Shown in pieces: positions 1-49,387 of a DNA stretch of 52,202 nt. The translations under genes were made by a program, and so were the position numbers. Source of the DNA: a virus. Position 1 is the first letter of the stretch. Each line of letters starts with the position of its first letter. The notes below the pieces were generated by a model, which was not told the origin of the DNA, searched no databases, and saw only the letters and a program-made list of their open reading frames with translations. Location of the stretch: the IMG/VR virus record IMGVR_UViG_3300000154_000010; one strand, written 5' to 3'.

Positions 1-1266
1 TTCATTTACGGATTCTAATTTTTTAGTTCTATCATATTTTTTTATAAAATCTTTAAAGAATTTTTCTGCTTTATCGTGTTTATTAACATTTCCTGGCATA
101 TCAATATATTTTGTTACTTCACCTTTTTTACCATGAAAGACAATATAATATTTGTTATTACCACTATAATAAGACATTTGATTACCATCTGCAGTATAAT
201 CAGTTCTACCATAAACATCTTTTGAATTCTTTTTAACTTTCGTCAAAATACTTCCTGACAATCCTTCATTTACGGATTCTTTAACTACTCTCATTCCAAC
301 TTCGTGATATTTATCTGAATTAATTAATTTATTGTAAAGAATAACTCCTGCTCTTTTAGATTTAGCTTTTTTCACAATTTTTTCTTTACCATTTTCATCA
401 GCAACATATACTTCCCATTCAGAGTTTTTGTAATCTTCTGTAAGTTTTGTTTCATTTATAGATTCACTCATTTCATGCTTAGAAAGTTTATTAACTTTTT
501 TCAAAAGTGATTTCGCCTTTGATTTATTATCTGTTTTCAATGCAACCATCGCATCCCAAAGTGGGGTGGCTATATTATGATAATTCACATCTTCAAGAGA
601 ATGATGTAGTAATAATAATCTTTCTTCATCCATTCTCCAATCTACACTCATACCCCATTTTAGCATACCTTCATAATCAAAATCTTTACTCCATGAATCA
701 CCGAGTTTATATCTTTTAGCTTCATTTACGGATTCTTTCTTATATTTACCAATGGCCAATCTAAATTGACCGGTTCCACCTAAATTCACTATTTTACCTT
801 GTTTTTCAAGTCGTTTAGTGGCTCTAATATGTGCCTTCAATTCTTTAGAATCTGCCCCTCTACTATCTGGACCCATACCGAATGATGCGGCGTATAAATC
901 TGCGTCTGTTGGATGTTCTTTATCATTTTGGTGTTTTTTGAGATAATCTAATATATCTTTTTCATACACACCTTCATTTACGGATTGTAATTCTTCTCTA
1001 ATTATTTTACGGAGTGTATTACGTGATACCGTTTCTTTTTTCAATCTACTCTTTGTTGCCCCATTTACGGATTCTTCAAAGTATCCCTTTTGTCTTAAAT
1101 CTTCTTTACCCTTTTCAAGAGATTTTTTGTTTTTATGGATTTGCAGATCCCAAAAATCACTTCCGTCAGTATGTTTTGATTTACCGTTATGGAAACTGAT
1201 AACGTATTTAGCTCTACCTATATTATGTCCGATTCTAAATCTTTTTTGGCCTTCATTTACGGATTC
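1..1266 (-). repeat. Dispersed 15-nt repeat GAATCCGTAAATGAA (ESVNE), 4 exact and 3 variant copies
   Basis: ttcatttacggattc on + at 1-15, 265-279, 721-735, 1252-1266; variants at 451-465 (ESINE), 973-987 (QSVNE), 1060-1074 (ESVNG). Confidence 0.95.
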
Positions 1267-1737
1267 TTTTTTCAATCTGCTCTTTTCGGCTCTACCTCGA
1301 TTTTTTGATTCTGATTCAAATCCCACAATTTTTCCTCCCTTATGTGATGCATCTTTACCATCACCATTTCCATAAGTACCTTTCTTACGATTGTACTTAT
1401 TTAATTCAGCTCTATACTTTTTAGATTTAGTGGATGAACCATACTTTGCGTATTCTTTTTTGTAATCCCTCTCCGTTCCACGAGAATCTTTTTTCTTGGT
1501 TTCTTTTATATCACTTGTACCTGAAAGTTTATATCCCAAGACTTCGGCATTCTTTTTTCGTTGGTCATTCCACTCATCTGTGAATCCACCATCGTATTTT
1601 TCAAGTTCTTCTCGTACCATATCACTAAGATAGGCTGATAATCTTGATTTATATTCGTCCACAGGTTCTTCCTTATGTTTTACCCAAACTGGGTGTTCTT
1701 CACCACTATATGGTCAAGTGTGATGACCAGGTTTCAT
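1..1737 (-). CDS. Modular ESVNE-linker polyprotein-like ORF, runs off the left edge; in-frame TGA at codon 8 (1714-1716)
   Basis: Manual translation: ATG at 1737 overlaps the TAA of the upstream gene (TAATG); MKPGHHT*PYSGEEHPVW..., then I found no further stop to position 1 (579 codons). Absent from the ORF track because it has no in-window stop. Next in-frame ATG is 1620, with no obvious RBS. Seven E/Q-S-V/I-N-E/G linkers, all in frame. Confidence 0.85.
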
Positions 1738-1998: not shown

Positions 1999-2238
1999 TT
2001 ATAATCCCTTTTTAACTAATCTAACGTATCTTGCTAATTCATTAGCCTCAATACCAAGTGCAGTAACTACTTGACCTAAAATGGCACCAATTTTCTTTTT
2101 GTTTAAATTTGCACCTTTTGTGGCTTCGATAAACTTATTCATATGTCGTTTTACTTGTGCTGGGATTGGAGCGTCAAATGCATCACCTTCCTCAGATACT
2201 ATTTCTCTAATCATTTCTCTTAATTGTGTTTTTGTCAT
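1999..2238 (-). CDS. Hypothetical protein with TKTQLRE-type leader
   Basis: Starts MTKTQLREMIREIVSEE; GGAG RBS upstream. Confidence 0.8.
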   Translation of the reverse strand: MTKTQLREMIREIVSEEGDAFDAPIPAQVKRHMNKFIEATKGANLNKKKIGAILGQVVTALGIEANELARYVRLVKKGL

Positions 2239-2240
2239 TG

Positions 2241-2855
2241 TTACTCTCCTCTAATAATGTCGTTAATAATTTCTTCTACTTTACAGTATTTGTTACACGT
2301 TCTACCATCTTCTACTTTCTCTACTCCTTCTTTAAGTGGATATAAAAATGCACCGTGTGTGCTTGGATTACTGACAAAATCAAATGCAATTAACTCAAAA
2401 TCATCTCCTACTTGTTGACCATCACCCTCCTTTAGTGGTTCTACTGAACCCATACCTCTTGACGAAATACCTAATTTTATTCCTGCCTTAAATAATTCCG
2501 TTAGAATATTTCCTGATGGTGTCCCTAATACTTCTACTGTTCCTACTAAGTTTTTTCCTTCCCAATGCATTTCAGTAATATTGTGAGATACATTTTGTAA
2601 ATTTACCACGGATGATTCTGGATGGTCTAATTCACCCATTGCTCGTTTTTGATTAATAAATCCTTCAGAATATTTCGTTGCTTCACGAGCTAATATCTTG
2701 CCTGGATAAACTCTACCATTCTGGTTTTTTGCATCTGCTCGCTGTAATACTCCATGCACTACGAGACGACCCTGATTAGTTTTTAGTGATTCAGTTATTT
2801 GTTCCCGTGAAATTTCAAACGGGAGATAATCGACAATCAACTGCCTATTACTCAT
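2241..2855 (-). CDS. gp21: T4-like prohead core protease
   Basis: Motifs GVLQRADAKNQNGRVYP, GELDHPES, GISSRGMGS, FDFVSNPSTHGA typical of gp21-family proteases. Confidence 0.93.
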   Translation of the reverse strand: MSNRQLIVDYLPFEISREQITESLKTNQGRLVVHGVLQRADAKNQNGRVYPGKILAREATKYSEGFINQKRAMGELDHPESSVVNLQNVSHNITEMHWEGKNLVGTVEVLGTPSGNILTELFKAGIKLGISSRGMGSVEPLKEGDGQQVGDDFELIAFDFVSNPSTHGAFLYPLKEGVEKVEDGRTCNKYCKVEEIINDIIRGE

Positions 2856-3181
2856 TATATTCTCCTATTGATAATTCTATCATGTAATTCCGTGAAATTG
2901 TAACTTGATTTTTTTGATTCTGTAATTGATCTGTATTGTTTTCCGTTTACTGTGATTTCAGCACCATCGTCTACCTTAGCATCCTGTACTTTTTGTCTTG
3001 TTGAATGAGATTTAGTGTAAGTTGGTTGGTCTGCTCTATCTAAATCATCCCACCAATCTTCTTCTAATTTATTTATTTGATGTCGTTTCATTACATCTTC
3101 AAATGTAGGTAGTGGATCACCAAATTCCCTCTTTACAAAAAATCTCTCATAATTTTCTTGTAATATGTGTTTTTTTGTCAT
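2855..3181 (-). CDS. Hypothetical protein with FGDPLPT module
   Basis: Shares N-terminal (KREFGDPLPTFEDVMK..EDWWDD) and C-terminal (I.GKQ.R.I.E) motifs with 3191-3967. Confidence 0.8.
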   Translation of the reverse strand: MTKKHILQENYERFFVKREFGDPLPTFEDVMKRHQINKLEEDWWDDLDRADQPTYTKSHSTRQKVQDAKVDDGAEITVNGKQYRSITESKKSSYNFTELHDRIINRRI

Positions 3182-3190
3182 TTTAATCTC

Positions 3191-3967
3191 CTATCTCTTA
3201 AATCTTTTGTAAAACTCTGAAAATTCATATTTTGATTTTGGTTCTTTTTCCACTTCACTAATTCTACGAAACTGTTTTCCATCAATCATAAGTGTTTCTT
3301 GGTTTAATTCATTACCAGTTCTGGGGGATTTGGCACCAACTACCTTCTCCATGCGTCCGAGTTCTCTCCTACTTTTTCTAAATTCTTCTCTATCATCATC
3401 AACAATTGATTGAATCCTTGATATTTCTTCTTCATCACCCGTTTCTTTTGCATCGTCCAACTCCCCCTTTGAAAAAGTAAGGTTTTCTTCGGCGGTATCA
3501 TAATCATCTTCAATTTTTTCCTGATTAGCAGTATAATATGTTTTACGAGATGCAACGAATTCTTTTCTATCACCATCAACAATTGATTGAATCCTTGATA
3601 TTTCTTCTTCATCGCCCATTGCTTTTGCATCGTCCAACTCCCCCTTTGAAAAAGTAAGGTTTTCTCCAGCAGTAGCATAATCATCTTTAATTTTTTGTGG
3701 GTCTAATTTTTCTTCACCACTTGGTCCTTCACCACTCGGTTCTTCACCACCATCATCATCATCAGCTTGTTGTGCTTGTTTTGAACCTGGATGGGCTTTT
3801 ATATATTGTGCCTGTGCTGATGCATCCATATCATCCCACCAATCTTCTTGTAATTTACTTTCTTGATGTTGTTTCATTACATCTTCAAGTGTTGGAAGTG
3901 GATCACCAAATTTTCTTTTTGTGAATCCAGGTGTACTTTCGTTTATTAATTTTTTTAATTTTATCAC
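3191..3967 (-). CDS. Hypothetical protein with MIKLKKLINE leader, FGDPLPT module and internal tandem repeat
   Basis: GTG start; acidic; 59-aa-period internal duplication. Confidence 0.85.
   Translation of the reverse strand: MIKLKKLINESTPGFTKRKFGDPLPTLEDVMKQHQESKLQEDWWDDMDASAQAQYIKAHPGSKQAQQADDDDGGEEPSGEGPSGEEKLDPQKIKDDYATAGENLTFSKGELDDAKAMGDEEEISRIQSIVDGDRKEFVASRKTYYTANQEKIEDDYDTAEENLTFSKGELDDAKETGDEEEISRIQSIVDDDREEFRKSRRELGRMEKVVGAKSPRTGNELNQETLMIDGKQFRRISEVEKEPKSKYEFSEFYKRFKR
3380..3691 (-). repeat. Intragenic direct repeat, two copies of about 135 nt, period 177 nt
   Basis: IKDDYATAGENLTFSKGELDDAKAMGDEEEISRIQSIVDGDRKEF vs IEDDYDTAEENLTFSKGELDDAKETGDEEEISRIQSIVDDDREEF; aacaattgattgaatccttga at 3401 and 3578. 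Confidence 0.95.
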
Positions 3968-3968
3968 A

Positions 3969-4349
3969 TTACTTCTCCGTTTTCATAAAATCATATTCTT
4001 GATTTTTAAAAATTTGTTCAAATTCATCTACATAATCTTTTGCTAACATAATTCTTTGTCTCTTTGGAAATATGTCTCTATCGTTTCCACCGAACTCTTT
4101 AACATACTTCTTAGCTCCATCATTGACAAGATATACAAATCCTTTCATGGCTAATGATGAATTATACTTTCCCTTTTGTTTCTTTTTAGATAAATTCTTT
4201 AATATTGGAATATATGTACCATTATATAAACGAGAATCATTATCAATGTAGAGTTTTAATTCTTCCATTTCACCAGAAAGACTGCGTTCAGTTAATAGTT
4301 GAATTTCTTCTTTGATTATTTCTCTTAATTGTGTTTTGGTTATTTTCAT
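3969..4349 (-). CDS. Hypothetical protein with MKITKTQLREIIKEE leader
   Basis: Leader, then LLTE, then a distinct domain. Confidence 0.85.
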   Translation of the reverse strand: MKITKTQLREIIKEEIQLLTERSLSGEMEELKLYIDNDSRLYNGTYIPILKNLSKKKQKGKYNSSLAMKGFVYLVNDGAKKYVKEFGGNDRDIFPKRQRIMLAKDYVDEFEQIFKNQEYDFMKTEK

Positions 4350-4360
4350 TTTATTTGTTC

Positions 4361-4639
4361 CTATATACCATCGACATTAAATTTTATACCACTTCCTTTT
4401 AGGGCTTTATAAATTTTATCGGCTACACTTTTATCAATATAACCACTAAAATCAAAAAAAGTTGAAGTTTTTTCATATTTAACATTTGGAAACTGTTTCT
4501 TTAATAGTGATGATATTTTTATACTTTGTATAGAATTTTTAGCATCAATAGCAAAATTTGAATTATTTTCTATAAGATAAATTTCTTCTCTAATTATTTC
4601 TTTTAATTGTGCTTTAGTTAATTCCAATAATGTCTTCAT
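4361..4639 (-). CDS. Hypothetical protein with TKAQLKEIIREE leader variant
   Basis: MKTLLELTKAQLKEIIREEIYLIE; ATGA-coupled. Confidence 0.8.
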   Translation of the reverse strand: MKTLLELTKAQLKEIIREEIYLIENNSNFAIDAKNSIQSIKISSLLKKQFPNVKYEKTSTFFDFSGYIDKSVADKIYKALKGSGIKFNVDGI

Positions 4640-4878
4640 TTCATTTTCCCTATTATTTTAGTCAGCCGAGATATCATATCCAACATCCCAGGTACAGATC
4701 TATAGTATTTTTCAGCCCATCCTTCTACTTTACCTTTATATTTAGTTGCATTGAAAATCTCATTTCTCAACGTATTCAACCCATCAACTAACATCTTAGG
4801 TGCATCATCGGGATCTATATAAGCTTCAGTTACTTCTTCTTTGATTATTTGTCTTAATTGTGTTTTAGTTATTTTCAT
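4636..4878 (-). CDS. Hypothetical protein with MKITKTQLRQIIKEE leader
   Basis: Leader motif; ATGA overlaps at both ends. Confidence 0.85.
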   Translation of the reverse strand: MKITKTQLRQIIKEEVTEAYIDPDDAPKMLVDGLNTLRNEIFNATKYKGKVEGWAEKYYRSVPGMLDMISRLTKIIGKMK

Positions 4879-5071: not shown

Positions 5072-5668
5072 TTAATACAGTTTCCCAATTTTATTGGATA
5101 ATTTCACCAATTTTTCACTAATCTTGCCCATGGCTTTGTGAGTGTTTTTCCAGTAGCTTCTGGAATCAATGGACAGCTCGGTTTTTAGTTTGACATTCAT
5201 CTTAACTAACTTATCTAACTCATTTAGTTTATCACGGACTTCTCTCATTGACTGACCAATTTTTTGTTTAGCACTCATCGATTCATCATTTCTGTAATCA
5301 TGATACTTTCCCTCTCTTACTTTTGATTTGTGATTTTTCATGATACCAGCTAAAGTTGGAAGTGGATCACCGAATTTCCTGTTGGTAAATCCTGGAGTTT
5401 TTGATTCGTTTATAGACTCTTTTCTCAATTTTGGGTTCTTTGTGACATATAAACCAGTTCCACGAGTTGGTTCTTCGTGACCTTTCGTGTATCCAGCCTT
5501 TCCTTTTTTAGTACCCTTTTTATTACTACCACTGAAAGCGTGTGGTGTATTATAACTACCACCTACACTTGCAGTTGAATTTGCCTCATCTAATTCTTGT
5601 TTAATAAGTTCACGGACGAGTTTTCGTATTAGACTTTCCCTATTTAACGACATTTCTAAGTTCTCCAA
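5072..5668 (-). CDS. Hypothetical protein with ESINE linker and FGDPLPT module (start may be 5653)
   Basis: LIRKLVRELIKQELDE, KLRKESINE, TPGFTNRKFGDPLPT. Confidence 0.8.
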   Translation of the reverse strand: MENLEMSLNRESLIRKLVRELIKQELDEANSTASVGGSYNTPHAFSGSNKKGTKKGKAGYTKGHEEPTRGTGLYVTKNPKLRKESINESKTPGFTNRKFGDPLPTLAGIMKNHKSKVREGKYHDYRNDESMSAKQKIGQSMREVRDKLNELDKLVKMNVKLKTELSIDSRSYWKNTHKAMGKISEKLVKLSNKIGKLY

Positions 5669-6506
5669 TAAGTGAATAATATCTCATTAGTGATACAACC
5701 TGCTTATCTCTAACAATTTTACCTTTTGTTAGAGTATCAGCTTGTGCTATAGATTCTTTTAACTTAATTTTAGTAATTTTATCAGTAATCTTTGGTAGTG
5801 ATTTAGTCAAAATCTCTTTTACCTTTTTAACTTCACCGTTGATAAATTCTCTTAATGAATTTGTATTAGAAATGTTATTTACATATTCTTTTAATAGATT
5901 TCGTTGCATTGAATTAAGAGTTTTATATTTACCATTAAAATTATCCACCATTAACTGATAAGACAACAATCGTAAATCTGTATCTTCTTTTTTGAATTCA
6001 GCAAGAGTTTTATTGTCTGTATTTCTCGGTTTTGTTTTATTTCGTGTGATGTGTTCCATTATAGTAAATGTACTATTTACTTCATCTGCTGGATCAAATA
6101 CCGGAGTAGTTTCTGCAAGAAATGACTTATATATTGAAGCATATACCTTGTAATTAGGTATTCTCACATTAAAAAAATCTTCTACTTTATAATTTTCTTT
6201 AATTTTCTTAATTAAATTATATTTTTCAGTTCGTAATTTTTTGTTCTGTAGTTTTTCCCTTGACTTTAAAACTACTTCAAGTAATTTTTCAGCTTTCCGT
6301 GGTGAATTATAATTTTCCTTTAATAAAACTTGATAGAGTTGATTCTCTTTACCTAACTCCGTTCCCTCATTGAAAAATTTCTTTAAAATTTCAACTGATT
6401 TGCTTTTCGCATTATCATTCATCACGTCTACTGTGATCTGACGAGATAGTAATTCGAAAAGTATCCCAGTATTCTTAATTTTACTATGACGTACTCTTTG
6501 ACTCAT
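5640..6506 (-). CDS. Hypothetical protein, probable head-assembly component
   Basis: 288-aa helical, basic ORF directly downstream of the portal gene with its own RBS; function inferred from position only. Confidence 0.55.
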   Translation of the reverse strand: MSQRVRHSKIKNTGILFELLSRQITVDVMNDNAKSKSVEILKKFFNEGTELGKENQLYQVLLKENYNSPRKAEKLLEVVLKSREKLQNKKLRTEKYNLIKKIKENYKVEDFFNVRIPNYKVYASIYKSFLAETTPVFDPADEVNSTFTIMEHITRNKTKPRNTDNKTLAEFKKEDTDLRLLSYQLMVDNFNGKYKTLNSMQRNLLKEYVNNISNTNSLREFINGEVKKVKEILTKSLPKITDKITKIKLKESIAQADTLTKGKIVRDKQVVSLMRYYSLIGELRNVVK

Positions 6507-6539
6507 AATTTAACTCCTAAATAAGTATATTTCTTCATC

Positions 6540-6547
6540 TATAAATA
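6540..6547 (-). promoter_or_regulatory. Putative late-promoter motif TATTTATA (coding strand)
   Basis: In the 6507-6563 intergenic gap, upstream of an AGGAG RBS; same octamer in three other gaps. Confidence 0.5.
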
Positions 6548-6563
6548 TAAAAACTTCTAATAA

Positions 6564-8423
6564 TCAATCATTTATTTCGTTACTTAACGATGATGATAAT
6601 TCATTTTTATATTCTTCTTCTACATCACTAGCTTCAAATAAAATCTTCCTATCTTCTTTACCAATTTTACCTAAACTTTTCTTTAATGTATCGTAGTGTG
6701 CTAATGCGAGTCCATATTTCGGACTACCACTACTTGCCTTTCTTTTATCATGTGACCCTAATGGATCACGACCTCTGATACTCGAATCTTTACCATATTT
6801 TGGACCTTCTTTTGGACGACCACTTCCTGGCCAACCGTCGTCTGGCATTTCCATATCTAATTCTTTTCCGGTTCTCCCAAATGGACTACCACCACCTTGT
6901 TGATCTTGACCTACCATAGCACCTTGAGTTCCAACTGCTTCCTCACTTTGAACTGGGTCATTTCCCTCTTGTTCTATCTGATCCCATCTGAATTTACGTT
7001 TTTGGTCTTTAATAATACCGAGTCTAACATTCTTCTTCTCTTCTTCTGTAAACTTGAAAATGTTATTGTAAATCCATTCTGTATCTGCTATTTTGGAGTC
7101 CATCATACTTGACGCAAGACTTTGTTTGTTGTTCCATAACTCTATCTTTTCTTCTTCGTATATTGTGGATGGGTTTGTAAGTTTCAATTCAAAATTGACT
7201 AGGTCAGCGTCAGTATAACCTTGTGCATATAAATGAACGATACCAATTTTAGTTAATTCACTTGTTACTATTCGTTGGAGTCGTTCTATTGTTCTTGCGA
7301 AACGAACATCTTCGGCTGCAAGAGTAGCTTTTCCACTTACGTTTTCATCATAACCAAGAAATGGTTTTGGGATTTTTAATGCTGCTAGGAGTTTATTTCT
7401 CAAATACTCTATATCGTCCACAGCTTCGTATGTAAGACCACTTAAAGTTTCTATTGACGTTCCACTATCGCCACCACGAACAGGGATAAAAAAGTCCTCT
7501 GTAAGATTTTGGATGTTGTATTTTAAATTGTAATCACCAGTTGCTGTATCCATAACTGGAGCTTTCTTCATTTTATTTGTAACTTTTTGCATGAAGTTAT
7601 CAACTTCTGCAGGTGGGATGTTTCCAATGTCAAATTTGAAAATTCTCTTTTCTGGTGCTCTCATAATACGATGGATTAACATAGCGTCTTCCATAAGTGA
7701 AAGTTGTTTCCAGATTTTACGACCACCTTCAATCATACTTTTACCATAAGGTAGGAAATTTGAATCTGATAGTAATCTGAAATGTGCCATTTCATAATTT
7801 TCCAATTCTTTGTTGCCATTCATATTTGAACTATGTCTCGCGTCACCGTGCTCCACTACGAACTGTGTCATGTATGGATTATCTGGATCTTCACCCTCTA
7901 TACGAGTAACATCATACGCTGAAAGTGGTACTATATTTGTAATGCCATATTTTTCCTTAATATCCAAATAAAGATAGAAGTCACCGTATTTGCACATATT
8001 ACGAACCCATGGCCAGAGATTGAATTCTATATTCAAAACATCGTAATATAAATTATGTAATATATCATGAATATTTTCATTTTCAGATCTAATTTCTAAC
8101 ACTTTACCATATTCGGATCGTAACGTACTTTCATCAGCATAAATATCCAATGCACTTGACAGGATTGCGTCATTATCCATTTCTTCATAATCTTTGAATA
8201 ATCCAAGACGTTGTGCTTGGAAACTAATTGCTTGAGCGTGTCCATATCCACCAGTTGTTAAATTGGTGTGTATTCTGGACCATCTGTCCACAAGACTGTT
8301 TCTTGTAGCGTTCTGAACTTGGTTTGTATCAGCAATTTTTAACTTTTTACCACCAGCGTGTCTAACGATAGCATTTGTGCTGAATAATCGGCGGAGACGG
8401 CTCCGTAAACTTTTATCTGCCAT
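6564..8423 (-). CDS. gp20: T4-like portal protein
   Basis: ALDIYADE, WVRNMCKYGD, EDAMLIHRIMRAPEKRIF, EDFFIPVRGG, YLRNKLLAALKIP, EDVRFARTIERLQ. Confidence 0.96.
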   Translation of the reverse strand: MADKSLRSRLRRLFSTNAIVRHAGGKKLKIADTNQVQNATRNSLVDRWSRIHTNLTTGGYGHAQAISFQAQRLGLFKDYEEMDNDAILSSALDIYADESTLRSEYGKVLEIRSENENIHDILHNLYYDVLNIEFNLWPWVRNMCKYGDFYLYLDIKEKYGITNIVPLSAYDVTRIEGEDPDNPYMTQFVVEHGDARHSSNMNGNKELENYEMAHFRLLSDSNFLPYGKSMIEGGRKIWKQLSLMEDAMLIHRIMRAPEKRIFKFDIGNIPPAEVDNFMQKVTNKMKKAPVMDTATGDYNLKYNIQNLTEDFFIPVRGGDSGTSIETLSGLTYEAVDDIEYLRNKLLAALKIPKPFLGYDENVSGKATLAAEDVRFARTIERLQRIVTSELTKIGIVHLYAQGYTDADLVNFELKLTNPSTIYEEEKIELWNNKQSLASSMMDSKIADTEWIYNNIFKFTEEEKKNVRLGIIKDQKRKFRWDQIEQEGNDPVQSEEAVGTQGAMVGQDQQGGGSPFGRTGKELDMEMPDDGWPGSGRPKEGPKYGKDSSIRGRDPLGSHDKRKASSGSPKYGLALAHYDTLKKSLGKIGKEDRKILFEASDVEEEYKNELSSSLSNEIND

Positions 8424-9216: not shown

Positions 9217-10794
9217 TTATTTTATTAACCATGTTAAATTTTCTTTTTCTCCAGCAACTTCCATTTCCCAAGAATCATTTCTATTATCCATTGGTTGGTA
9301 AACTGCTTCGTAATCTAATGTTCTACTTAATACATCTTTCTGTAATGCTATTCCTTCTGATTTTAATCTTAATGCTGTATCTCTAACCCACATACCTATT
9401 GCAAGACTGATTGAAAGATCATCATTATATCCTTCCATTGCCTGTGCCTTAAAATTGTGGTAAATAAATACAAACAATTCTTCTATCAATCTAGATGAAT
9501 GAACTATTACAGTTTTTTCTCTAAAATACTCTTCTAATTTTGCTATTACTAATGGTCGTGTTTTCATGGTCATACTGAAACCCGGGACCATCTTTTGATC
9601 CATATTTCTATATTTATTTGATATTTGACGCTGAACATCCACGTAGTGTAAATCCTTACTCGTATAAAACAAATTATCATAATCTCTGTCTATAACTTGC
9701 TGTATTGCTGCCCAACCTATTGATGCATTTTCAATAACGAGTAACGCGTTGTTATATTCTACTGCAGTATTCATACATAAATTACCAAAATCTTTTGTGG
9801 ATATTTTTCCTTTATATTCCGCTACTTGTTCCATTTTCTGTACATCTATTACGTGGAATGCTGAAAAGTCATTACCATCACCACGGGCAACGTCAGCACT
9901 CAATACATAATCTTGTGTGTAATCTGGTGGTCTCCATATCCATAAATTACTATCAAATCCCCTTTTTTCCATTGGTTCTTCAATGTGGGTATTTTTATAT
10001 TCTTCAAGTATAACACCATCAATTACAGTTTGACCAGATGTGATGAATGAGCAATCACATTCTTGTGCTGCCATTGAAGGACCTAATAGTTTATCTTGGT
10101 CATCTCTCCAATCTTGTTCCCTATCTGGGTGTACTGTCCAATGGAGTTTAATGAAATTCCAATCATTTTTCCCTTCTTCAGCTCCAGCCCATGTTTTATG
10201 AAACCAATTTCCTACTCCATTGGGTGTGCTTAATGCAATACATTGACCACCAGTAGATAAGGTACTTTGTGCCGCTGTCCATATTGCATCAATTTTTGGA
10301 ATAAATGAGGCTTCATCGAGTATCAATAATGATAATGCTTCTGATCTACCACTATCTTCACCACTGGAAATTGCCTTTACTTGTGAACCATTTGAATATT
10401 TTAAAGATAATTTATTATCCTCCGTACAACTGGATTTTACCCAATTTGGAAGATTAGCATGCATAACTCGTATTTTTGTTACGAGATTTTTTGCTGTATC
10501 CTGTTTGGTAGCAATAACCAATATATTCTTGTCTGTTTGAAAGGTCATCATCCATAATGAATAACCAGCTACGAGAGTGGATATTCCTAACTGACGAGCT
10601 TTGAGAATAATATTATAATTGTGCTTATTAAAATCTTCTAATGTTTTTTCTTGGAAATCATATAAGGAAAATGGAATTTTACCGTCTATTGGATGTTGAA
10701 TGACAGCATACTTTTTTAGAAAGTATATTGGGTCTTTAGCACACTTTATGTATTCGGCTTTTATTATTTCTTTTATGTTTTGGCTATTACTCAT
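9217..10794 (-). CDS. gp17: T4-like terminase large subunit
   Basis: IILKARQLGIST, LLILDEASFI (Walker B), STPNG, QECDCSF, nuclease motif ADVARGDGNDFSAF. Confidence 0.96.
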   Translation of the reverse strand: MSNSQNIKEIIKAEYIKCAKDPIYFLKKYAVIQHPIDGKIPFSLYDFQEKTLEDFNKHNYNIILKARQLGISTLVAGYSLWMMTFQTDKNILVIATKQDTAKNLVTKIRVMHANLPNWVKSSCTEDNKLSLKYSNGSQVKAISSGEDSGRSEALSLLILDEASFIPKIDAIWTAAQSTLSTGGQCIALSTPNGVGNWFHKTWAGAEEGKNDWNFIKLHWTVHPDREQDWRDDQDKLLGPSMAAQECDCSFITSGQTVIDGVILEEYKNTHIEEPMEKRGFDSNLWIWRPPDYTQDYVLSADVARGDGNDFSAFHVIDVQKMEQVAEYKGKISTKDFGNLCMNTAVEYNNALLVIENASIGWAAIQQVIDRDYDNLFYTSKDLHYVDVQRQISNKYRNMDQKMVPGFSMTMKTRPLVIAKLEEYFREKTVIVHSSRLIEELFVFIYHNFKAQAMEGYNDDLSISLAIGMWVRDTALRLKSEGIALQKDVLSRTLDYEAVYQPMDNRNDSWEMEVAGEKENLTWLIK

Positions 10795-12093: not shown

Positions 12094-12206
12094 TTTTTGC
12101 TCCTACAATTATTGAAATGATATCGTTTCATATTAGTTACTCCTCCAGTTTTATCACAGTTAGGACAAGTATCTATTTTTTGTTTATGTATCCGTCCTAC
12201 AATTTT
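12090..12206 (-). pseudogene. Out-of-frame second copy of the endonuclease C-terminal Cys module
   Basis: Shifted frame reads KIVGRIHKQKIDTCPNCDKTGGVTNMKRYHFNNCRSKK*, paralogous to SRVECPSCGVVGGINLMHRYHFENCR; its TGA overlaps the ATG at 12093. Confidence 0.8.
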
Positions 12207-12882
12207 CAAAATGATATCGATGCATCAAATTTATTCCACCAACTACACCACATGATGGGCATTCAACTCTTGAAAATTTCATACCTGTTCTGCCAATGCT
12301 CATATTTCGACATCGTTCTTTAGATAATGGTATGCCCATTAACGCATCACTAATACTTTTACGATGAGATTCTGTTAATTTTTTTTCAGTAAGACCTTTG
12401 CTAATATTATTACAATGTTCTTCAGATTTAGTTACTCCAAACATTGTCTTACTAATATTTTTACGATGTTCATCAGATAAATTTCTACCCAGCAAGCCTT
12501 TACTAATATTCATAGAATGTTCTTTAGAACGAATTCTTCCTTTTAATGATTTGCCTTTTTTCTTATTTGATTCTTCCGAAAAAATATGATTAAATCCACC
12601 AGTAGTCATATTATATCCGGTTCCCTCATCCATAAAAGTATTATATTCTTTAATATAATATGATTCCATTTTATTTAACTCATCCATAGAATTACACTCA
12701 CATATAATACCCCACTTAAAATTTTCTATGCCATATTTACGAAGTGCATTATGAAAATAAAAATTTGAATTTCCATTAAATGCGCTCTGGCAATGACCTT
12801 TTTTTCTATCTTCCAATGTCTTAATCGTCTGACCAATATAAGATTTATCATTTATTTCATTGTGTGCTCGATAAATAATCAT
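12184..12882 (-). CDS. GIY-YIG homing endonuclease with NUMOD3-like repeats
   Basis: MIIY..NDKSYIGQT, ALRKYG, E..YIKEYNT..GYN; repeated (L/H)SEEH(R/C).NISK.L.G units; C-terminal CPSC..HFENC. Confidence 0.9.
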   Translation of the reverse strand: MIIYRAHNEINDKSYIGQTIKTLEDRKKGHCQSAFNGNSNFYFHNALRKYGIENFKWGIICECNSMDELNKMESYYIKEYNTFMDEGTGYNMTTGGFNHIFSEESNKKKGKSLKGRIRSKEHSMNISKGLLGRNLSDEHRKNISKTMFGVTKSEEHCNNISKGLTEKKLTESHRKSISDALMGIPLSKERCRNMSIGRTGMKFSRVECPSCGVVGGINLMHRYHFENCRTDT

Positions 12883-41389: not shown

Positions 41390-42202
41390 TTAAACATTCT
41401 TAAAACCTCTTTTTATATAATTGTGTAAATAAGTTGATAACCAGTTGTGTGCATCTTTACCTGGATGACCATCAGTTGCTAACCATTCATCTGGTGATTC
41501 GTGTGTTTGGTATCTACCATAAAGATATTCGTTCCAACTATCAATCACTTTTTTCTCGTTATAACTATATAAATAATTATCTTCAAAAGAAAGAAAGTTG
41601 GTATTTTTTCTTAAAAAATCTGTTAGTGTTATTGAATGTATGTCATCAGTAGTATCTCTTGGTAATCCCAACGAATTAAAAATAATTAAATCAATTTTAT
41701 TCTCTTTTAAATATAGCAATAACAAAGTAATTTCTCTTTTAATTTTTTCCACTCTCTCTTTATCAGAGTAAAAATATTGTAAATAAAACATTAACCATTT
41801 TAAAACTCTATCCCTACCTGTCTTTAGTGAAGTAATATGAGTTGGAACTTTTATTCCAGTATCTCCTTCCATTGGACCAATATGATTGTCTCCCAATGAA
41901 CTTAAATGTGAATCAACATATTGATTTATTTCATTCAAATAAAATTCAACTCGGGATGGATCAGTTAATCCTAAAATCAATAAAGTATCTTTGCATTTAT
42001 CTTTATTGTTTTCTACCCAATCAAAAGTAGTTCTAAATATTCTATCATTAGAAGCTCCTGTTTTTGATAAGTTTATATCTTCACATAATAATTTATTTGA
42101 TAATAAATTAGAAAACCTATATTTGAAGTGTTCTTCCGTATTGCCTAATCCATCACCAAAAACAAAACTACATCCATTTGTTACTAAATATTTATAACTC
42201 AT
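41390..42202 (-). CDS. SGNH/GDSL-like protein
   Basis: NGCSFVFG, GASN, DGHPG..AH. Confidence 0.72.
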   Translation of the reverse strand: MSYKYLVTNGCSFVFGDGLGNTEEHFKYRFSNLLSNKLLCEDINLSKTGASNDRIFRTTFDWVENNKDKCKDTLLILGLTDPSRVEFYLNEINQYVDSHLSSLGDNHIGPMEGDTGIKVPTHITSLKTGRDRVLKWLMFYLQYFYSDKERVEKIKREITLLLLYLKENKIDLIIFNSLGLPRDTTDDIHSITLTDFLRKNTNFLSFEDNYLYSYNEKKVIDSWNEYLYGRYQTHESPDEWLATDGHPGKDAHNWLSTYLHNYIKRGFKNV

Positions 42203-43013
42203 TTTTCAAATCCTTATATAATTCATCTGCCCACAATTGATGTCCATTTTCACTTGGATGAGGATCATTTTCACTCCACATATTTTTTTTATATTCTAAC
42301 TTTTTACTATCAGAATTTAAATCTAATAGAAAGTTTTTGAATGATATTGACTTAAAAATTCTCTCTCTTAATCTATAAAAATAATCTTTTGTATGAGAAT
42401 CATATATCTCCAAATCATCTTCAACTTGATAACCATGATGAAGTCCTAACATAGCATTACCATCTTTTTTCGTATAAAACGCATCAAAAAATAAGTGATT
42501 GATTTTATAATGAGATAGAAATTTGTGTAAATATAAATTTTGATGTATATACCTACTCATATACTCCCTTTCATTCCAAAAATATAAAAAATATGATTCA
42601 TAAAAATTATAAAGTTTTTCAGGTATATTTTTGTGCTGTTGTTTATCTAAAAACATATCTGGTCTCATGGTTTCCCAAAACTCATCATCTTCAAATTCAA
42701 AATAAAAATCTTTGCGTTCGGGTGATGTCCATCCAATAATAACAAAAATTTCCTGTTCATCATACTCCAATAATAATTTTAATGTATATTCTACGACATC
42801 ACGTACTATGGTATCGTTTGAACATCCTGCACTGGCACAATTGATAACTTTTGTATTTAATAATTTTCCTAACTTATGTGGCCAAACTTTTGGTAATCTA
42901 TAATTGTCATTTTTAACATGATTCACATAGGTGATTCCTTTTTTTTGTAATTTTGGATCTATAATATCACCTGATGTCCAACTATCGCCCCCACATAAAA
43001 GTATTTTCTTCAT
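42192..43013 (-). CDS. SGNH/GDSL-like protein
   Basis: GGDSWTSG, AGCSN, DPHPSENGH. Confidence 0.75.
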   Translation of the reverse strand: MKKILLCGGDSWTSGDIIDPKLQKKGITYVNHVKNDNYRLPKVWPHKLGKLLNTKVINCASAGCSNDTIVRDVVEYTLKLLLEYDEQEIFVIIGWTSPERKDFYFEFEDDEFWETMRPDMFLDKQQHKNIPEKLYNFYESYFLYFWNEREYMSRYIHQNLYLHKFLSHYKINHLFFDAFYTKKDGNAMLGLHHGYQVEDDLEIYDSHTKDYFYRLRERIFKSISFKNFLLDLNSDSKKLEYKKNMWSENDPHPSENGHQLWADELYKDLKNEL

Positions 43014-43796: not shown

Positions 43797-44618
43797 TCAA
43801 ATCCACTCATCATTATATTTTACGAAATGATTACCATTGTTACTCTCATCATATATTTTAAAAGAATTAACTTCTTTTAAATTACTCATAAAAATAATTT
43901 CTCTATGACCAAAATCACCATCTTGATATGTACCACTAAAAAAAGATCCCAATGTTTTTCCATATGTAAATTGTGGAATAATATCCGTATCAACTTGCTC
44001 TTCTCCAGATTGACTAAATTCTCTTTCAAATTCTATTCTATCCTGTGAGAGTATATCATACAAAAATATACCAACACCACTTATTGTCCCCTTAAAATTC
44101 CACCGATATTCTGGTGGACACGTTGATAATCCATTACAACACCCTAACCAAATCATAGCATCAATATACTTAACCATATCTCCATCAATATCTCTTTCTA
44201 TATATTTATCATTCACTTGAAATTTAAGTTTTTGTTTATCTCTATCTACAACCATGACTATATTATACCAATCATCCTTTTTATCTACTTTCCAATGGGG
44301 ATCGTTTGATGTACCATCTTCTATTTTACAATATATAGAAACTGGGGTTTCAACTGATTTTTGTAATGCCCACATATCACATTGTAAAAATAAATCTCCA
44401 TTTTCCGTTTTTCTACATAAAATTCCAGTATGTTGTCCGTTTATTGCAAGCATTCCACCAACTTCATCGGATGCCATTTCATCCCAATCCACCTTTACCC
44501 TCATTGCAAATGAAAAAATTGATGATGTAAATAATTTTGATGGTAAAAGAGTACTTAAACCATGCTTATTACTTAATGGTAAAAAATAAGCATCCTCATC
44601 TCCCTTAAAATTTATCAT
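43797..44618 (-). CDS. Stand-alone LamG/ConA-like beta-sandwich protein
   Basis: FSFAMRVK, WYNIVMVVD, FKGTISGVGIF, IYDESNNGNH; resembles the inserts in the GT7 genes. Confidence 0.7.
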   Translation of the reverse strand: MINFKGDEDAYFLPLSNKHGLSTLLPSKLFTSSIFSFAMRVKVDWDEMASDEVGGMLAINGQHTGILCRKTENGDLFLQCDMWALQKSVETPVSIYCKIEDGTSNDPHWKVDKKDDWYNIVMVVDRDKQKLKFQVNDKYIERDIDGDMVKYIDAMIWLGCCNGLSTCPPEYRWNFKGTISGVGIFLYDILSQDRIEFEREFSQSGEEQVDTDIIPQFTYGKTLGSFFSGTYQDGDFGHREIIFMSNLKEVNSFKIYDESNNGNHFVKYNDEWI

Positions 44619-46075
44619 AAAGACATCTCCAATGTTGAATAATAAAAACTTTCTAATTCCGGAAAAACATCTACAAAGTTTGTTCCCCTTCTTCTATCAT
44701 GTTCTTTAAAAAACTTACCAAAATTATATCTCTGTACCTTTAACTCATCGGAATCTTGATCAACTGATATCATCCAATCGTAAATTCGTTTTAATTTTTG
44801 AGTTTCAATATCAGAAAATCCTATATTCCTATAATCAAATAAAGGAACAGACAAATAATCCATATATTGTGCCTGTTTAAAGATATTGTCTGACCATTCT
44901 GGTGGTAATACCTGCACGGTTTGGTGTGTTGGATGTCTCAAATAAGATGAATCCAAAAAAGTTGCAGATGGCCAATATCTATCTTCAGAACCATATGACT
45001 TCTTTAATTCATATATTCCATTAATTAGTTTTTTATAACTCGGAACTGATAGTGCATTGTAGGTACTCATAAAAGTTAAATTTACACGACTGCATTTTTC
45101 TAATATCTTATTACAATTATCCCAAAACCTATTAAATTCTAAACCATTTCTTATATATTCAGCCTGTGTTCCCCAAGCATCTACTGATGTATATACAACA
45201 AATTCTTTTACTCTGTTCTCATCTTCAATTCTTTGTATTCTTTGTATTAAATTATCTATTAAAACATCTGGTACTCCTAAATTAGAATTTAGAGATAAGG
45301 ATAATTCTTTATTTGGATTTGGTTCATCAATAATATAATCCAACACTTTCCACGTGTCCTTTGATAACAAAGGTTCTCCACCAGTTATTCTGAATGTATG
45401 TAGATTACGATACAGCGCTGGCCACCATTCCCAAAATGCCTCTACATATGGATTTTCTTCACGGTGTGGTATTGGCATTTTATCTTCATTTGTTATATAT
45501 TTTATGGAATTAAAATCTTCCGTTGTAGGATATCCACCATACTTTTGAGTTTCGTCCATCCAGGTAGATGAAAAAGCAGGGCCACAATAACTACATTTGA
45601 AATTACAGGCATTGGAGAATGCCACTTCAACATATTTAGGATTAAAATTTTCTTGTGGATCCATTTTCACAATTTCTTCAAGATGGGGATGAGACCATGA
45701 TGCTCCTGATTTTAAAACTCTATCAGAAAATCTATCCGAGTTATCTTCTATATTCCAACAATAATCACATTCCTTTGGACGTTTACCGTCCAACATTTCT
45801 TTTCGTTTTTCTTTTTTAAATTGTGTATTATGGAGTGCTGTAGGATTAACTTTTAATTCATTTAATGGTATCTTATGGGTGACCGGATGATGACAACTAT
45901 GAGTATGTCCTAAATGTAGATGCATAGTAACTTGTGTCCATTTTGCAAGACAGAATCCACATCCCGTATCATTTAGATCAGATTTTAATTTATCGTAAAA
46001 TGGATTATCACTTGTAAAATCACTTTCTCCGGGTTTTACTAATTCCAGTTGGACCTTTGTACCTTCTGATTGCAT
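44615..46075 (-). CDS. Radical SAM protein with N-terminal Cys/His-rich auxiliary domain
   Basis: CNFKCSYC, TGGEPLL; N-terminal CGFC..SCHH..CDYC. Confidence 0.92.
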   Translation of the reverse strand: MQSEGTKVQLELVKPGESDFTSDNPFYDKLKSDLNDTGCGFCLAKWTQVTMHLHLGHTHSCHHPVTHKIPLNELKVNPTALHNTQFKKEKRKEMLDGKRPKECDYCWNIEDNSDRFSDRVLKSGASWSHPHLEEIVKMDPQENFNPKYVEVAFSNACNFKCSYCGPAFSSTWMDETQKYGGYPTTEDFNSIKYITNEDKMPIPHREENPYVEAFWEWWPALYRNLHTFRITGGEPLLSKDTWKVLDYIIDEPNPNKELSLSLNSNLGVPDVLIDNLIQRIQRIEDENRVKEFVVYTSVDAWGTQAEYIRNGLEFNRFWDNCNKILEKCSRVNLTFMSTYNALSVPSYKKLINGIYELKKSYGSEDRYWPSATFLDSSYLRHPTHQTVQVLPPEWSDNIFKQAQYMDYLSVPLFDYRNIGFSDIETQKLKRIYDWMISVDQDSDELKVQRYNFGKFFKEHDRRRGTNFVDVFPELESFYYSTLEMSL

Positions 46076-47575
46076 TTATATCTCCACGTGATTTGGAATA
46101 TCTTGTTCACATCTAAAATCTATTATTTCATGTTCTGTATTAAATAAATATTCTCGTTTAACAATATTGTAATTTAAATCCGCGAGTCCATCTTCATCTG
46201 TATTTATCATTCCACCTTTCACTTCATCTATGAATCTTCTTTCATTTATACTTGTATCTTTTTGGTGAACGAATTTGTTTCCAACAATATCATTCCGTTT
46301 GTGGTGTTGTGAAAAATACCGACCTTTACGACTCCTATATGGTAATGTTGTGTTTGATATTTTACCTATCTCTTCATTTATTATACTACAACCATTTATA
46401 ATTCCATGATTTCCATTTCCACTTAAATCATATACTATGTCATTTTCTACTTTTGAAAAATCATAATATAATTTTGTATTTTCTGGGGTTGGAAAATCTG
46501 TTTTGTAATATTCTTGTCTTTCACTATCATCAAATATTCTATCCCACATACAAACTTGTGTAATATCACCTGCAAAGTAATTGGTGTAATCTGCTGTTTT
46601 TGGATCATTCACTCCAATGTAAAATGGATTTCCACCATATTTCTTTAATGGTGATTCAAATTTTAATGGTGATTCTGAACCATGTCCGAATCTGGAATCT
46701 GATTCTTCACCATTTAGATAAAATCTCATTTCCCCTTTATCAACATTTACCGTTATCATCAAATGTGTCCAGGTTTCTGGGTGTCGTTTTATCCACATAT
46801 AAGAATGATTATTCTTTTGATTAAATAAACCAAAAGAATATGCGTTAGAATTGTCCCATGCAAATCCCATTTGGTAACTTGGTCTCCCTAAAATATATTG
46901 ATGAATAAATTCTCTGTTTTCTACATCCCCAATTAAATATGTTGGAATATCAAATCTATCTTCTGCTTTTACTAATATTGATATTGTGAAATTACCACTC
47001 GTTAGTTCTCGTATAGAATCTGTTGGATTGATTTTGATGTAATTAGAAAGTCCATCAAATCGTGCGAAGTTTCGTGGTTCGTTTGATTCATTATTCATAA
47101 ATGTTGTTTTTGCAAGTCCTTTCTTCTTTACTCGATATAACAAATCATCATCTTCCATTCCCCAATTGAAATACCCATTTGAATATCCATTGATTTTTTG
47201 GTAATGTTCCTTTGTGAATAAGATTGCACCTCCGAAATACTCTTGATATTTTAGCCCATAGCCGAATTGAGCAACATTTACTGCTAAATGTTCTACTTTA
47301 TCAGGATAGGAATAATCACAAGTATCATCTTCTGGTAACATATCTATATCATGAAAACAGAAATAATCATATCCTTCCTTTTGGGCTACATCAAAAGCTA
47401 CATTTTTTGCAGTTCCTCTATTAAATCCACTTACCGAATCAGGATAAACTTGATTGGCAACAAATATCTTGTATTCTATATCTTTGTCCTTAAAAAATTC
47501 ATCCATATGTGGAATAAACTTTTTAAGATGTTCTTCTCTTTTGTAGTGTGGAACACATATTGCTAATTTCTTCAT
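46076..47575 (-). CDS. GT7 beta-1,4-galactosyltransferase-like protein with inserted LamG-like domain
   Basis: FNRG, FHDIDMLP, YFGG, INGYSNGYFNWGMEDDDL, LamG-like insert, then GRYF..H..DGLADL. Confidence 0.85.
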   Translation of the reverse strand: MKKLAICVPHYKREEHLKKFIPHMDEFFKDKDIEYKIFVANQVYPDSVSGFNRGTAKNVAFDVAQKEGYDYFCFHDIDMLPEDDTCDYSYPDKVEHLAVNVAQFGYGLKYQEYFGGAILFTKEHYQKINGYSNGYFNWGMEDDDLLYRVKKKGLAKTTFMNNESNEPRNFARFDGLSNYIKINPTDSIRELTSGNFTISILVKAEDRFDIPTYLIGDVENREFIHQYILGRPSYQMGFAWDNSNAYSFGLFNQKNNHSYMWIKRHPETWTHLMITVNVDKGEMRFYLNGEESDSRFGHGSESPLKFESPLKKYGGNPFYIGVNDPKTADYTNYFAGDITQVCMWDRIFDDSERQEYYKTDFPTPENTKLYYDFSKVENDIVYDLSGNGNHGIINGCSIINEEIGKISNTTLPYRSRKGRYFSQHHKRNDIVGNKFVHQKDTSINERRFIDEVKGGMINTDEDGLADLNYNIVKREYLFNTEHEIIDFRCEQDIPNHVEI

Positions 47576-49053
47576 ATTACTGATATAAACTCATGTTTAT
47601 CTAAAAATTCTTCGTTATGTGATATCTCATACTTCAATGAACTCAACCCATCTTCCTTTATTGAAGATAATCCACGTCTTACCTTATTAAAAAACCGTAA
47701 TTGATTTTCTCGTGTTTCCCAATGTGTAAACTTTGTCTGTGACCAACCATTTTCTTCGTGTTCTAAACAAGTAAACTTTCCATCTCGTCTGTTTGGTATT
47801 AAAGCCAAACTACCAATTCTCAATTCCTTTTCTTTCTGAAGTGCTCCGTGGATTTTTGCATGATTATCATTTCCACTCTTATCAATGACCATATCACCTA
47901 CTACATTATCAAAATTCCAATATCCTACAACGTCTTTTGCAGATTTATACTTTTCATTACCTTGTTTCCACCCATCAAATTGTTTATTATCTGTAACGTT
48001 TCGTGGAAATCCACCATTATATAGATACGAGGCCTCTTCGCTACTGACACAATTTGACCAAAGTGTAATTTGTGCAACATTTCCTTTGAAATATCCTCTA
48101 TCATCTGTTCTTGCATTTGGATTTGCACAACCAATATAATATGGAATGTTACTTGCTTCTTTGATTTTACCTAAATAATCCGTTGGTGACTCATTTACCT
48201 CTATACCGTTCACATACATCCGTAATCGTTTCAGGATGTGGTCTACCGTGTAGATCACTTGAACCCACTCGTTAGTGTGTCTATCTGAAACTACCATATA
48301 TTGTTCATTGGTATCATTCCAAATACCACCTTTGTATTGCATTCCACTTGTATATGCAATTCCTACGTGATGACCTGGTCTGGTAAATACATGAAATTCA
48401 TCGTAATCTTTATTTGGATCTAACTCTAAATCATCGGATGGTTCTACCCAAGCTTCTACTGAAAATGATGAATTGACTACTTTGTTTAATGAAAGTGTAT
48501 TTTTTATTTCAAGGTAGTCTCTGCCGTTAAATTCCATAACATTTATGTATCGTGGGGTTTTGTCTTTTGACGAACCAGTCCATTGTTCTTGTAATGGAAC
48601 TCCTTGTTTTCTACATCTGTATAACAAGTCGTCATCTTCAAATCCCCATCCCCAATATTTATTGGAAAATCCATTTATCCACTCAAAATGTTCTTTGTTG
48701 AATAATGTCACCCCACTAAAATACTCTGGATATACCAAACGGTAGTTGAATTTACTTAAACGGGATGCTAAGTGTGTAGGTTTATCTACCCAAGAATAAT
48801 CACAAGTTTTATCTTCAGGTAACATATCTACGTCGTGGAAACAAAAATAATCAAATCCCTGTTCCTTTGCAACCATATATCCTACGTTTATGAGCCAACC
48901 ACGGTTAAATGGTTTATCGTTTCCTTGTTCTATTACAAAAATTTTGTAAGGAATATCTTTATCACTTAAAAACTTGTCCATATGTGGTACAAATCGTGAT
49001 AAGTGATCTTCCCTTTCCCGGTAAGGAACAATTATTGCAAGTTTTGGGTTCAT
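47572..49053 (-). CDS. GT7 beta-1,4-galactosyltransferase-like protein with inserted LamG-like domain
   Basis: IVPYRER, FNRG, FHDVDMLP, NGFSNKYWGWGFEDDDL, LamG-like insert, then GKF..LEH..DGLSSL. Confidence 0.88.
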   Translation of the reverse strand: MNPKLAIIVPYREREDHLSRFVPHMDKFLSDKDIPYKIFVIEQGNDKPFNRGWLINVGYMVAKEQGFDYFCFHDVDMLPEDKTCDYSWVDKPTHLASRLSKFNYRLVYPEYFSGVTLFNKEHFEWINGFSNKYWGWGFEDDDLLYRCRKQGVPLQEQWTGSSKDKTPRYINVMEFNGRDYLEIKNTLSLNKVVNSSFSVEAWVEPSDDLELDPNKDYDEFHVFTRPGHHVGIAYTSGMQYKGGIWNDTNEQYMVVSDRHTNEWVQVIYTVDHILKRLRMYVNGIEVNESPTDYLGKIKEASNIPYYIGCANPNARTDDRGYFKGNVAQITLWSNCVSSEEASYLYNGGFPRNVTDNKQFDGWKQGNEKYKSAKDVVGYWNFDNVVGDMVIDKSGNDNHAKIHGALQKEKELRIGSLALIPNRRDGKFTCLEHEENGWSQTKFTHWETRENQLRFFNKVRRGLSSIKEDGLSSLKYEISHNEEFLDKHEFISVI

Positions 49054-49376: not shown

Positions 49377-49387
49377 AACTTTATCTC

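Follow-up and report, generated by a model that had tools for sequence, protein, structure and literature searches.

A viral polyprotein, probably phage-head cargo, with modules exchanged at a repeated 15-nt linker

The window analysed here, 52,202 nt of DNA from an uncultured marine relative of phage T4 (IMG/VR record IMGVR_UViG_3300000154_000010), opens within a reading frame that consists of unrelated modules strung on a short repeated linker. Sequence comparison and analogy with phage T4 suggest that this open reading frame (ORF) probably encodes a phage-head cargo polyprotein that is targeted by a leader, cut by an S77 protease at the linkers and reshuffled at the same linkers. In the proposed mechanism the conserved acidic leader of 54 aa would take the entire chain into the assembling prohead core, and the phage's S77 (gp21-type) protease would cut behind the Glu residues of the [V/I]-N-E linkers and of the leader-terminal I-K-E. 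Cutting would free mostly basic proteins of 3-10 kDa, which would remain with the DNA and probably pass into the host together with it, as T4 internal proteins do. Related phages reshuffle an open repertoire of modules, most simply via the ordinary short-homology recombination of T4-type phages. Since the linkers are alike in both sequence and reading frame, any linker-linker crossover keeps the frame and would restore a cut site.

The polyprotein ORF (1..1662, minus strand) encodes 554 aa in the window and is open at its 3′ end, at the window edge. Its frame is open from 1713 down to window base 1, and the first start codon is a GTG (1660-1662), which is aligned with the ATG of relatives. The earlier note on this DNA, made from the letters alone, had drawn the ORF from 1737 to <1; the ORF stands, with its start moved to the GTG at 1662, because 1737 is the end of the upstream gene. 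The seven in-frame ESVNE-type linkers that it described, four of them identical over all 15 nt, are all present, all on the minus strand and in a single frame. The exact 15-mer GAATCCGTAAATGAA is found in linker 1 (1252-1266), at 721-735 and 265-279, and in linker 7 (1-15), on which the window ends. The three variants are linker 2 (1060-1074, ESVNG, two mismatches), linker 3 (973-987, QSVNE, one mismatch) and an ESINE linker (451-465, two mismatches). Linker 2 lacks a Glu at the expected cut position and, judged from its sequence, probably stays uncut. Linker 3 is the left crossover of a three-module indel, and the linkers at 721-735, 451-465 and 265-279 lie within the 708-nt block concerned. 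Allowing up to two mismatches, the seven matches in the window compare with a mean of 0.31 in shuffled sequence, and 0 of 100 shuffles reached seven; at up to three mismatches the linker count alone is not significant (shuffle mean 3.61, with 8 of 100 shuffles reaching seven). The ESINE variant reads ..TCTATAAATGAA.. and contains TATAAAT, which resembles the T4 late-promoter core; this is presumably a coincidence of the Ile codon.

Upstream of the first module is an acidic leader (1501..1662; residues 1-54, pI 4.7) that is conserved, ends in S-D-I-K-E and marks the point (residue 54) at which homology with relatives breaks off. From its sequence, the leader is proposed to be a head-targeting propeptide. 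With its I-K-E end, at the place where homology stops, it may be a counterpart of the T4-type capsid-targeting sequence (CTS), which ends in L/I-x-E. Module 1 (1267..1500; residues 55-132; phrog_6437) is the most widespread module. Module 2 (1075..1251; residues 138-196, beginning GQKRF) lies between two copies of SRLKKE, and module 3 (988..1059; residues 202-225) consists of a second copy of the module-1 tail (ATKSRLKKE) followed by the leader-like TLRKIIREEL. Modules 4, 5 and 6 make up the 708-nt block (265..972; residues 231-466), and module 7 (16..264; residues 467-549, beginning GLSGS) is a confidently folded α/β domain in the AlphaFold2 model; leader and modules are all on the minus strand. 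The segments between linkers, given in the earlier note as unrelated and roughly 30-90 aa long, are 24-85 aa, or 29-90 aa counting the linker, and they are mutually unrelated: blastp finds similarity among them only in the SRLKKE duplication (E 0.007) and the linker tails. The duplicated stretches (1267-1284 and 1033-1050) are alike at 17 of 18 nt and flank module 2 plus its linker, as had been noticed, and the internal TLRKIIREEL (988-1017) does resemble the MKITKTQLREIIREEI leaders of small genes nearby.

The seven predicted products range from 3.4 to 10.6 kDa, six with a pI of 8.9-10.4 and one with a pI of 7.1, and the polyprotein as a whole is basic (pI 9.5). The predicted products are thus small and basic, as are the mature internal proteins of T4. 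The AlphaFold2 model of the 554-aa polyprotein, built from an 85-row alignment, has a mean pLDDT of 63.8. All seven linkers and the leader end fall in segments with a pLDDT below 50, and modules 6, 7 and part of module 5 reach 83-94. Low-confidence linkers between folded modules are what a model of separable units, strung like beads, would be expected to show.

The linker is conserved as DNA. Among ESVNE copies taken from loci that were not chosen by the 15-mer, with unrelated contexts, 78 of 104 distinct-context copies (75%) are one 15-nt string, compared with an expectation of about 2% from the product of background codon shares; the identity at synonymous positions first remarked on in the window therefore holds among relatives. 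The linker Ser is TCC in 32 of 39 cases, the background shares being 7.9% (same ORFs) and 5.7% (other genes of the window), and the linker Val is GTA in 32 of 34 cases, against 42-44% in the background, where GTT is equally common. As the copies sit between unrelated modules, their likeness reflects descent or conversion, not convergence on a peptide motif. Rare linker variants with AGT or GTT keep the ESVNE peptide and are compatible, at the sequence level, with an added constraint on the peptide. Codon controls, which were conserved motifs inside homologous modules, have 25-93% string identity by common descent and did not sharpen the test. The fixed codons could also serve translation or RNA, for example through a rare-codon pause, with breakpoints reflecting selection against disrupted modules. 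A translational pause at domain ends is a known idea, the rarity of TCC (5.7-7.9%) in the background would suit it, and selection would likewise remove crossovers within modules; the fixed GTA, however, is not explained by a rare-codon pause, and the 16-nt crossover zone described below, lying between flanks that are 100% identical, needs homology at the DNA level. This explanation is very unlikely, and it can hold alongside the reading of the linker as a recombination joint.

Comparison of sequences directly supports the 15-nt linker as a joint for the gain, loss and exchange of modules. The linker DNA had been proposed as a recombination hub, with the expectation that breakpoints of module gain and loss in relatives would fall on the 15-mer; they do, and for one of them both flanks are 100% identical between the genomes compared. 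Two metagenome records (L150 and L151) and two protein clusters (P0005 and P0006) lack the 708-nt block (265-972) but otherwise match the window at 97-100% identity. For L150 and L151 the match is 100% over 730 nt on one side of the 708-nt indel and 278 nt on the other, and their two high-scoring segment pairs (HSPs) overlap by 16 nt, AATCCGTAAATGAAGG, at the linker, which defines the crossover zone; P0005 and P0006 have the same deletion junction at the protein level. The full-length form is represented by L149 (1283 aa, 14 linkers), whose match to the window holds at 99.8% identity for 1079 nt and ends 5 nt short of the ESVNG linker. Past linker 7, where the window ends, relatives have three different continuations. 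HSPs with at least 95% identity among 85 non-contained polyprotein ORFs have 207 internal end points; 103 of these are no more than 3 nt from a linker (5.4% under the null) and 127 no more than 10 nt (9% under the null). The end points are not independent events, and many of the remaining ones are at the leader junction. The deletion in L150 and L151 and these end points place crossovers within the motif itself, as in shuffling of the PeSL or GRM type.

The repertoire of modules is large. Greedy clustering sorted 188 linker-to-linker segments into 97 families, of which 60 are singletons; it was used in place of single-linkage clustering, which chained modules into one family of 102. Recurrent modules have nearly as many different neighbours as occurrences, and one module that occurs 10 times has 6 left and 7 right neighbour families. 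The position of module 1 varies widely among matching proteins of 94-854 aa. Scans with protein patterns found 17 viral loci and 80 metagenome loci, the 15-mer is present in at least 125 viral stretches, and a profile-free search with the polyprotein matched 1591 cluster representatives at E<=0.001.

All of the comparison sequences are metagenome assemblies, which raises the question of whether the shuffling is an artefact of chimeric contigs joined at a short repeat. Many contigs do end in the polyprotein region, and there are common stretches of 20-23 nt around linkers. Against this, the deletion form is found in two records and two protein clusters, and the architectures of L002/L003/L004 and of L007/L008/L009 recur across separate records. 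In Logan contigs from four runs of four studies the region is split into pieces of 148-486 nt; of the 24 loose ends listed, 21 are at most 6 nt from a linker and 3 are near the leader end. A repeat of 15-23 nt is shorter than the 31-mers of these contigs and cannot alone branch a 31-mer graph, yet branching at linkers was found in 4/4 runs, which suggests that the samples hold alternative neighbours at the joints. An assembly artefact is thus extremely improbable. Two joints (284>1250 and 738>2204) were set aside as repeat effects, their short sides being only 20-24 nt. Contig ends on linkers were dropped as evidence, since only 3 of 31 cases in L018-L097 lay within 16 nt of a linker. The first 1700 nt of the window were found in 20 marine or seawater runs from 15 named studies, 2012-2020 (at least 92% of sampled 31-mers), which makes this arrangement of modules, for all the shuffling, a widespread and persistent one; the four Logan runs are among these 20.

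A more speculative reading takes ESVNE to be dual-coded, as both head-protease cut site and recombination joint, so that several head-cargo genes would be in-frame cassette arrays, a protein-level analogue of integrons, through which co-infecting phages trade small injected anti-defence proteins. No promoter, ribosome site or targeting tag would then be needed for each protein traded, and identity at synonymous sites would be kept because only canonical linkers join in the exchange. This is put forward tentatively, as a possibility on the doubtful side of even.

The polyprotein ORF is placed among head genes. All window genes are on the minus strand, and the order in transcription is large terminase (9217-10794), portal (6564-8423), small genes, protease, two small genes and the polyprotein ORF. 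The prohead protease (2241..2855, minus strand) is a Peptidase_S77 of the T4 gp21 type with the motifs GELDHPES and ISSRGMGS (Pfam PF03420, E 1e-25; phmmer to T4 gp21 chain 5jbl_A, E 2.5e-14). A gp21 gene had been placed 500 nt upstream of the polyprotein; its identity is borne out by these matches, and the distance, from protease end to ORF start, is 579 nt. One small gene (1999..2238, minus strand), with the leader-like N-terminus MTKTQLREMIREIVSEE, is a candidate for a separate head cargo. Three others (3969-4349, 4361-4639 and 4636-4878, all minus strand) have MKITKTQLREIIKEE-type leaders ending in [LIV]-x-E. Dozens of small genes nearby have leaders of the MKITKTQLREIIREEIQxLNE type, and the leaders of small genes in the neighbourhood are 17-21 aa long and end in [LI]-x-E. 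A conserved head-region gene (5072..5668, minus strand) has an internal ESINE, and its C-terminal domain begins after V-R-E; homologues in L010 and L017 bear extra ESVNE-bounded cassettes at that domain boundary.

A complete relative of 216 kb (G001) encodes, in this order, the protease, a polyprotein of 675 aa, three leader-type genes, an acidic scaffold-like protein of 391 aa and the major capsid protein (MCP), and in this genome 5/5 linker matches are inside the polyprotein gene, compared with 0 for a reversed-pattern control. In a second relative (G002) two linker-bearing genes lie upstream of the terminase and portal, 11-13 kb from the protease and within the head-gene cluster. Two partial records (G003 and G004) gave no S77 match, and in both the linker gene is far from the MCP gene, by about 83 kb in G003 (42176-42445 and 125517-126875); the layout of these two records means that placement of the polyprotein beside the protease is not universal. 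By portal the nearest cultured phages are Microcystis phage Mel-JY01 (52.5% identical) and Flavobacterium phage immuto (51.2% identical), both of which have a short protease-to-MCP interval and gave no match to the polyprotein. With a separate scaffold-like gene, the S77 protease upstream and the portal and large terminase beyond, the context fits the head-cargo reading. Identity of the polyprotein with a gp22-like scaffold was considered and rejected, as the very acidic 391-aa protein of G001 is separate and directly upstream of the MCP gene; gp22-type proteins are acidic, helical and upstream of the MCP, and the polyprotein has a pI of 9.5 and mixed α/β modules.

A related alternative is that the polyprotein is cleavable filler of the core or scaffold, cut only for clearance from the head and with no role after assembly. 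As described in PMC5694885, T4 gp22, gp67 and gp68 are substrates of this kind, with several cuts per protein as the known pattern of T4 core proteins, and they resemble the present protein in having several L/I-x-E-type sites and in being encoded near the protease gene. The polyprotein differs from them in being basic, modular and hypervariable and in coexisting with a separate acidic scaffold-like gene. Its position next to the protease in the head-gene cluster, and the absence of any module with a recognisable function, would suit a filler. Several modules nevertheless fold confidently as compact domains of 60-90 aa, unlike short escape peptides; T4 IPI* and IPII* are of about that size. 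A filler also does not predict the fast turnover of modules (97 families) between 100%-identical genomes, nor the occurrence of module 1 as a free gene in podoviruses. This alternative is considered unlikely.

Several indirect lines of evidence fit cleavage at the linkers. T4 gp21 cuts after Glu in L/I-X-E (PMC9026906). In the N-arm of the MCPs of G001, Mel-JY01 and immuto the sequence is Q-[IL]-[IV]-x-E|A, with Glu-Ala invariant, and the C-terminal domain of the 5072-5668 head gene product starts after [VL]-[NR]-E in 6/6 sequences, cultured Mel-JY01 included. Where homologues of modules 2, 4, 5, 6 and 7 occur in other proteins, the residue before them is Glu in 44 of 52 distinct contexts, against a Glu frequency of 5.4% in the database. 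The modules there come after [VLI]-x-E, in sequences such as ESVNE, SKLNE, HLLNE and KKLQE, many of them different from ESVNE. One module follows SDIKE in a polyprotein but a QSIRE-ending leader in a separate gene. The junction rule requires only a hydrophobic P3 and Glu at P1, so that the E-S of the linker is surplus to it; the fixed E-S together with the fixed codons exceeds what cutting needs, in keeping with an additional role as DNA. Motif class, junction rule and the exposed linkers of the model agree, indirectly, with ESVNE-type linkers being predicted sites of the phage's S77 protease. A complex prediction for the protease with polyprotein residues 118-157, run without controls, gave no verdict (score 0.00).

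The same features bear on whether the polyprotein is instead an uncleaved multi-domain protein, beads on a string, in which ESVNE is a flexible spacer or a motif that binds DNA or capsid. The modules are, however, also found as the first cargo after cleavable-type leaders ending in [LI]-x-E, the linker belongs to the same motif class as the conserved MCP site and the domain boundary in the conserved head gene, and a spacer gives no reason for Glu in so many unrelated contexts (44 of 52). Such a protein would account for a linker that is longer and more fixed than the three-residue rule of T4 demands and for the one copy without Glu, and cleavage has so far been predicted from sequence. On this evidence an uncleaved protein is distinctly unlikely.

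No known family or fold was found for any module. Searches of Pfam, PHROGs and the ESM Atlas with the polyprotein or module 1 returned only phrog_6437, which has no assigned function, and unnamed viral clusters. Pfam found no family in the window ORF, and for ten polyproteins it gave no family at E<=0.01 in nine and one sub-threshold coiled-coil match in the tenth. Fold searches used one whole model of 554 aa (>400 residues): Foldseek against the PDB gave nothing at E<=0.001, BFVD gave two matches, uncharacterised or coiled-coil, with TM <=0.24, and VIA-align against 48,161 chains gave a best Z of 6.4, which is in the range called common. Two anti-CRISPR entries (Z 5.0 and 4.8) and ClpS (Z 4.8) among the weak VIA-align matches are leads only. 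As no module matched a known family or fold, an effector role is pure analogy; the modules may be effectors in the way that T4 IPI is.

Module 1 is a free small gene in T7-like cyanophages. These account for all 28 phage records matched in the polyprotein search, and in 28/28 the match covers module 1 only. In P-SSP7 (L229, 2471-2719) the module 1 gene, of about 80 aa, lies between small-terminase-like and HNH endonuclease genes. Module 1 is thus a small protein common to a myovirus and a podovirus, and its free-standing form in podoviruses implies that modules need not be capsid cargo. The T7-like cyanophages that carry it are not known to have an S77 protease.

The closest known system is that of the T4 internal proteins. 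IPI, IPII, IPIII and Alt combine a capsid-targeting sequence with processing by gp21, as given in PMC3012670, PMC9026906 and PMC5694885. Common to both systems are a T4-type head, an S77 protease, small proteins that are basic and rich in lysine, an N-terminal address ending in [LI]-x-E (cleavable in T4, predicted to be so here) and a cargo set that varies strongly among related phages. In T4 each cargo has a gene, a CTS and a cut of its own, whereas here many cargo units would share one frame, with a single 54-aa leader and a fixed joint of five residues or 15 nt, and the present system is known from sequence. The polyvalent proteins of Iyer et al. (2017, PMC5512222) contain between 2 and 15 recognisable domains, effector or enzymatic, per polypeptide and, like the present ORF, unite many unrelated units and are encoded among virion and packaging genes. 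PMC5512222 regards them as probably delivered along with the DNA, and some are proteolytically processed, which is also what is proposed here; their domains are recognisable enzymatic or anti-defence ones, often with an MPTase peptidase of their own. The present units are 24-110 aa, no known domain was found by Pfam in ten polyproteins, and cutting is presumed to be done by the head-maturation protease at a repeated linker.

The closest parallels for the exchange of modules are PeSLs and GRMs, in which short conserved sequences flank variable modules and crossovers fall inside them between near-identical genomes. T4-type recombination needs only small patches of homology, which resembles exchange at a 15-nt joint. 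PeSLs are described as intergenic promoter-terminator units of about 100 bp, and GRMs as structural core motifs of one adhesin domain. The present joint differs in being only 15 nt long, in frame inside the coding sequence of one ORF, without a promoter and terminator cassette, and in doubling as a presumed protease site.

A literature search found no linker-jointed head-cargo polyprotein and no mention of ESVNE, Immutovirus or Mel-JY01, a weak negative as few subscription journals were covered. The many-cargo, linker-jointed form of T4-type internal proteins appears to be new in so far as no description was found. If the polyprotein is cut and packaged, it would represent a cargo-loading strategy for dsDNA phages of which no description was found. 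One leader would bring into the capsid an exchangeable set of many small proteins, and recombination that preserves the frame, at a joint that regenerates its own cut site, would rebuild this set. This would explain how a large pool of small phage proteins lacking an assigned function is deployed; the pool comprises 97 module families among 85 genes, and 1591 cluster representatives match this one polyprotein. The modules would then be candidates for early-acting factors of host takeover or anti-defence, and the joint could be a natural design for multi-cargo packaging in T4-type heads. The window contributes an exact crossover located between genomes of 100% identity, evidence from synonymous sites, and branching in contigs of four further studies.

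Further leader families were observed. A second conserved leader, MIKLKKLINE..FTKRxFGDPLPTxxDVMKxHQ, heads otherwise different proteins in the window (2855-3181 and 3191-3967, minus strand), in L013 (2509-3398) and in L146 (13122-13493), and some of these proteins also have a common C-terminal tail, ..YxFxELHDRxINRRI. In P0060 this leader ends in K-L-Q-E where it is joined to module 5. More ESVNE polyproteins begin with a leader of a third family, MPFKSEKQRKWMxAxxPxMAKKWEKEE (L013, 3761-5263; L006, 5572-7737; L146, 13493-14173), which implies that several acceptor genes per genome use the same joint. The protein encoded at 3191-3967 in the window is acidic, 258 aa long, and has an internal tandem duplication of about 45 aa in which DDYxTAxENLTFSKGELDDAKxxGDEEEISRIQSIVDxDRxEF occurs twice.

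Other observations concern genes outside the polyprotein. The portal gene of L007-L009 (L007:2-1942, plus strand) seems to contain a large insertion with a Cys start and an HN|S end, just before the conserved KATLAAEDVRFARTIER stretch; from its sequence it appears to be an intein with an endonuclease-like middle. The insertion is missing from the window portal (6564-8423, minus strand), and the L146 portal (6239-8062) was also in the comparison. A GIY-YIG homing endonuclease (12184-12882, minus strand; phrog_314, E 1.2e-33) lies among the small genes upstream of the terminase. The region 44615-50866 (minus strand) is a run of genes of about 490 aa, at least two of which (47572-49053 and 49388-50866) look like paralogues, with a common ..YFCFHD[VI]DM[LI]P.. 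and a long C-terminal part in common.
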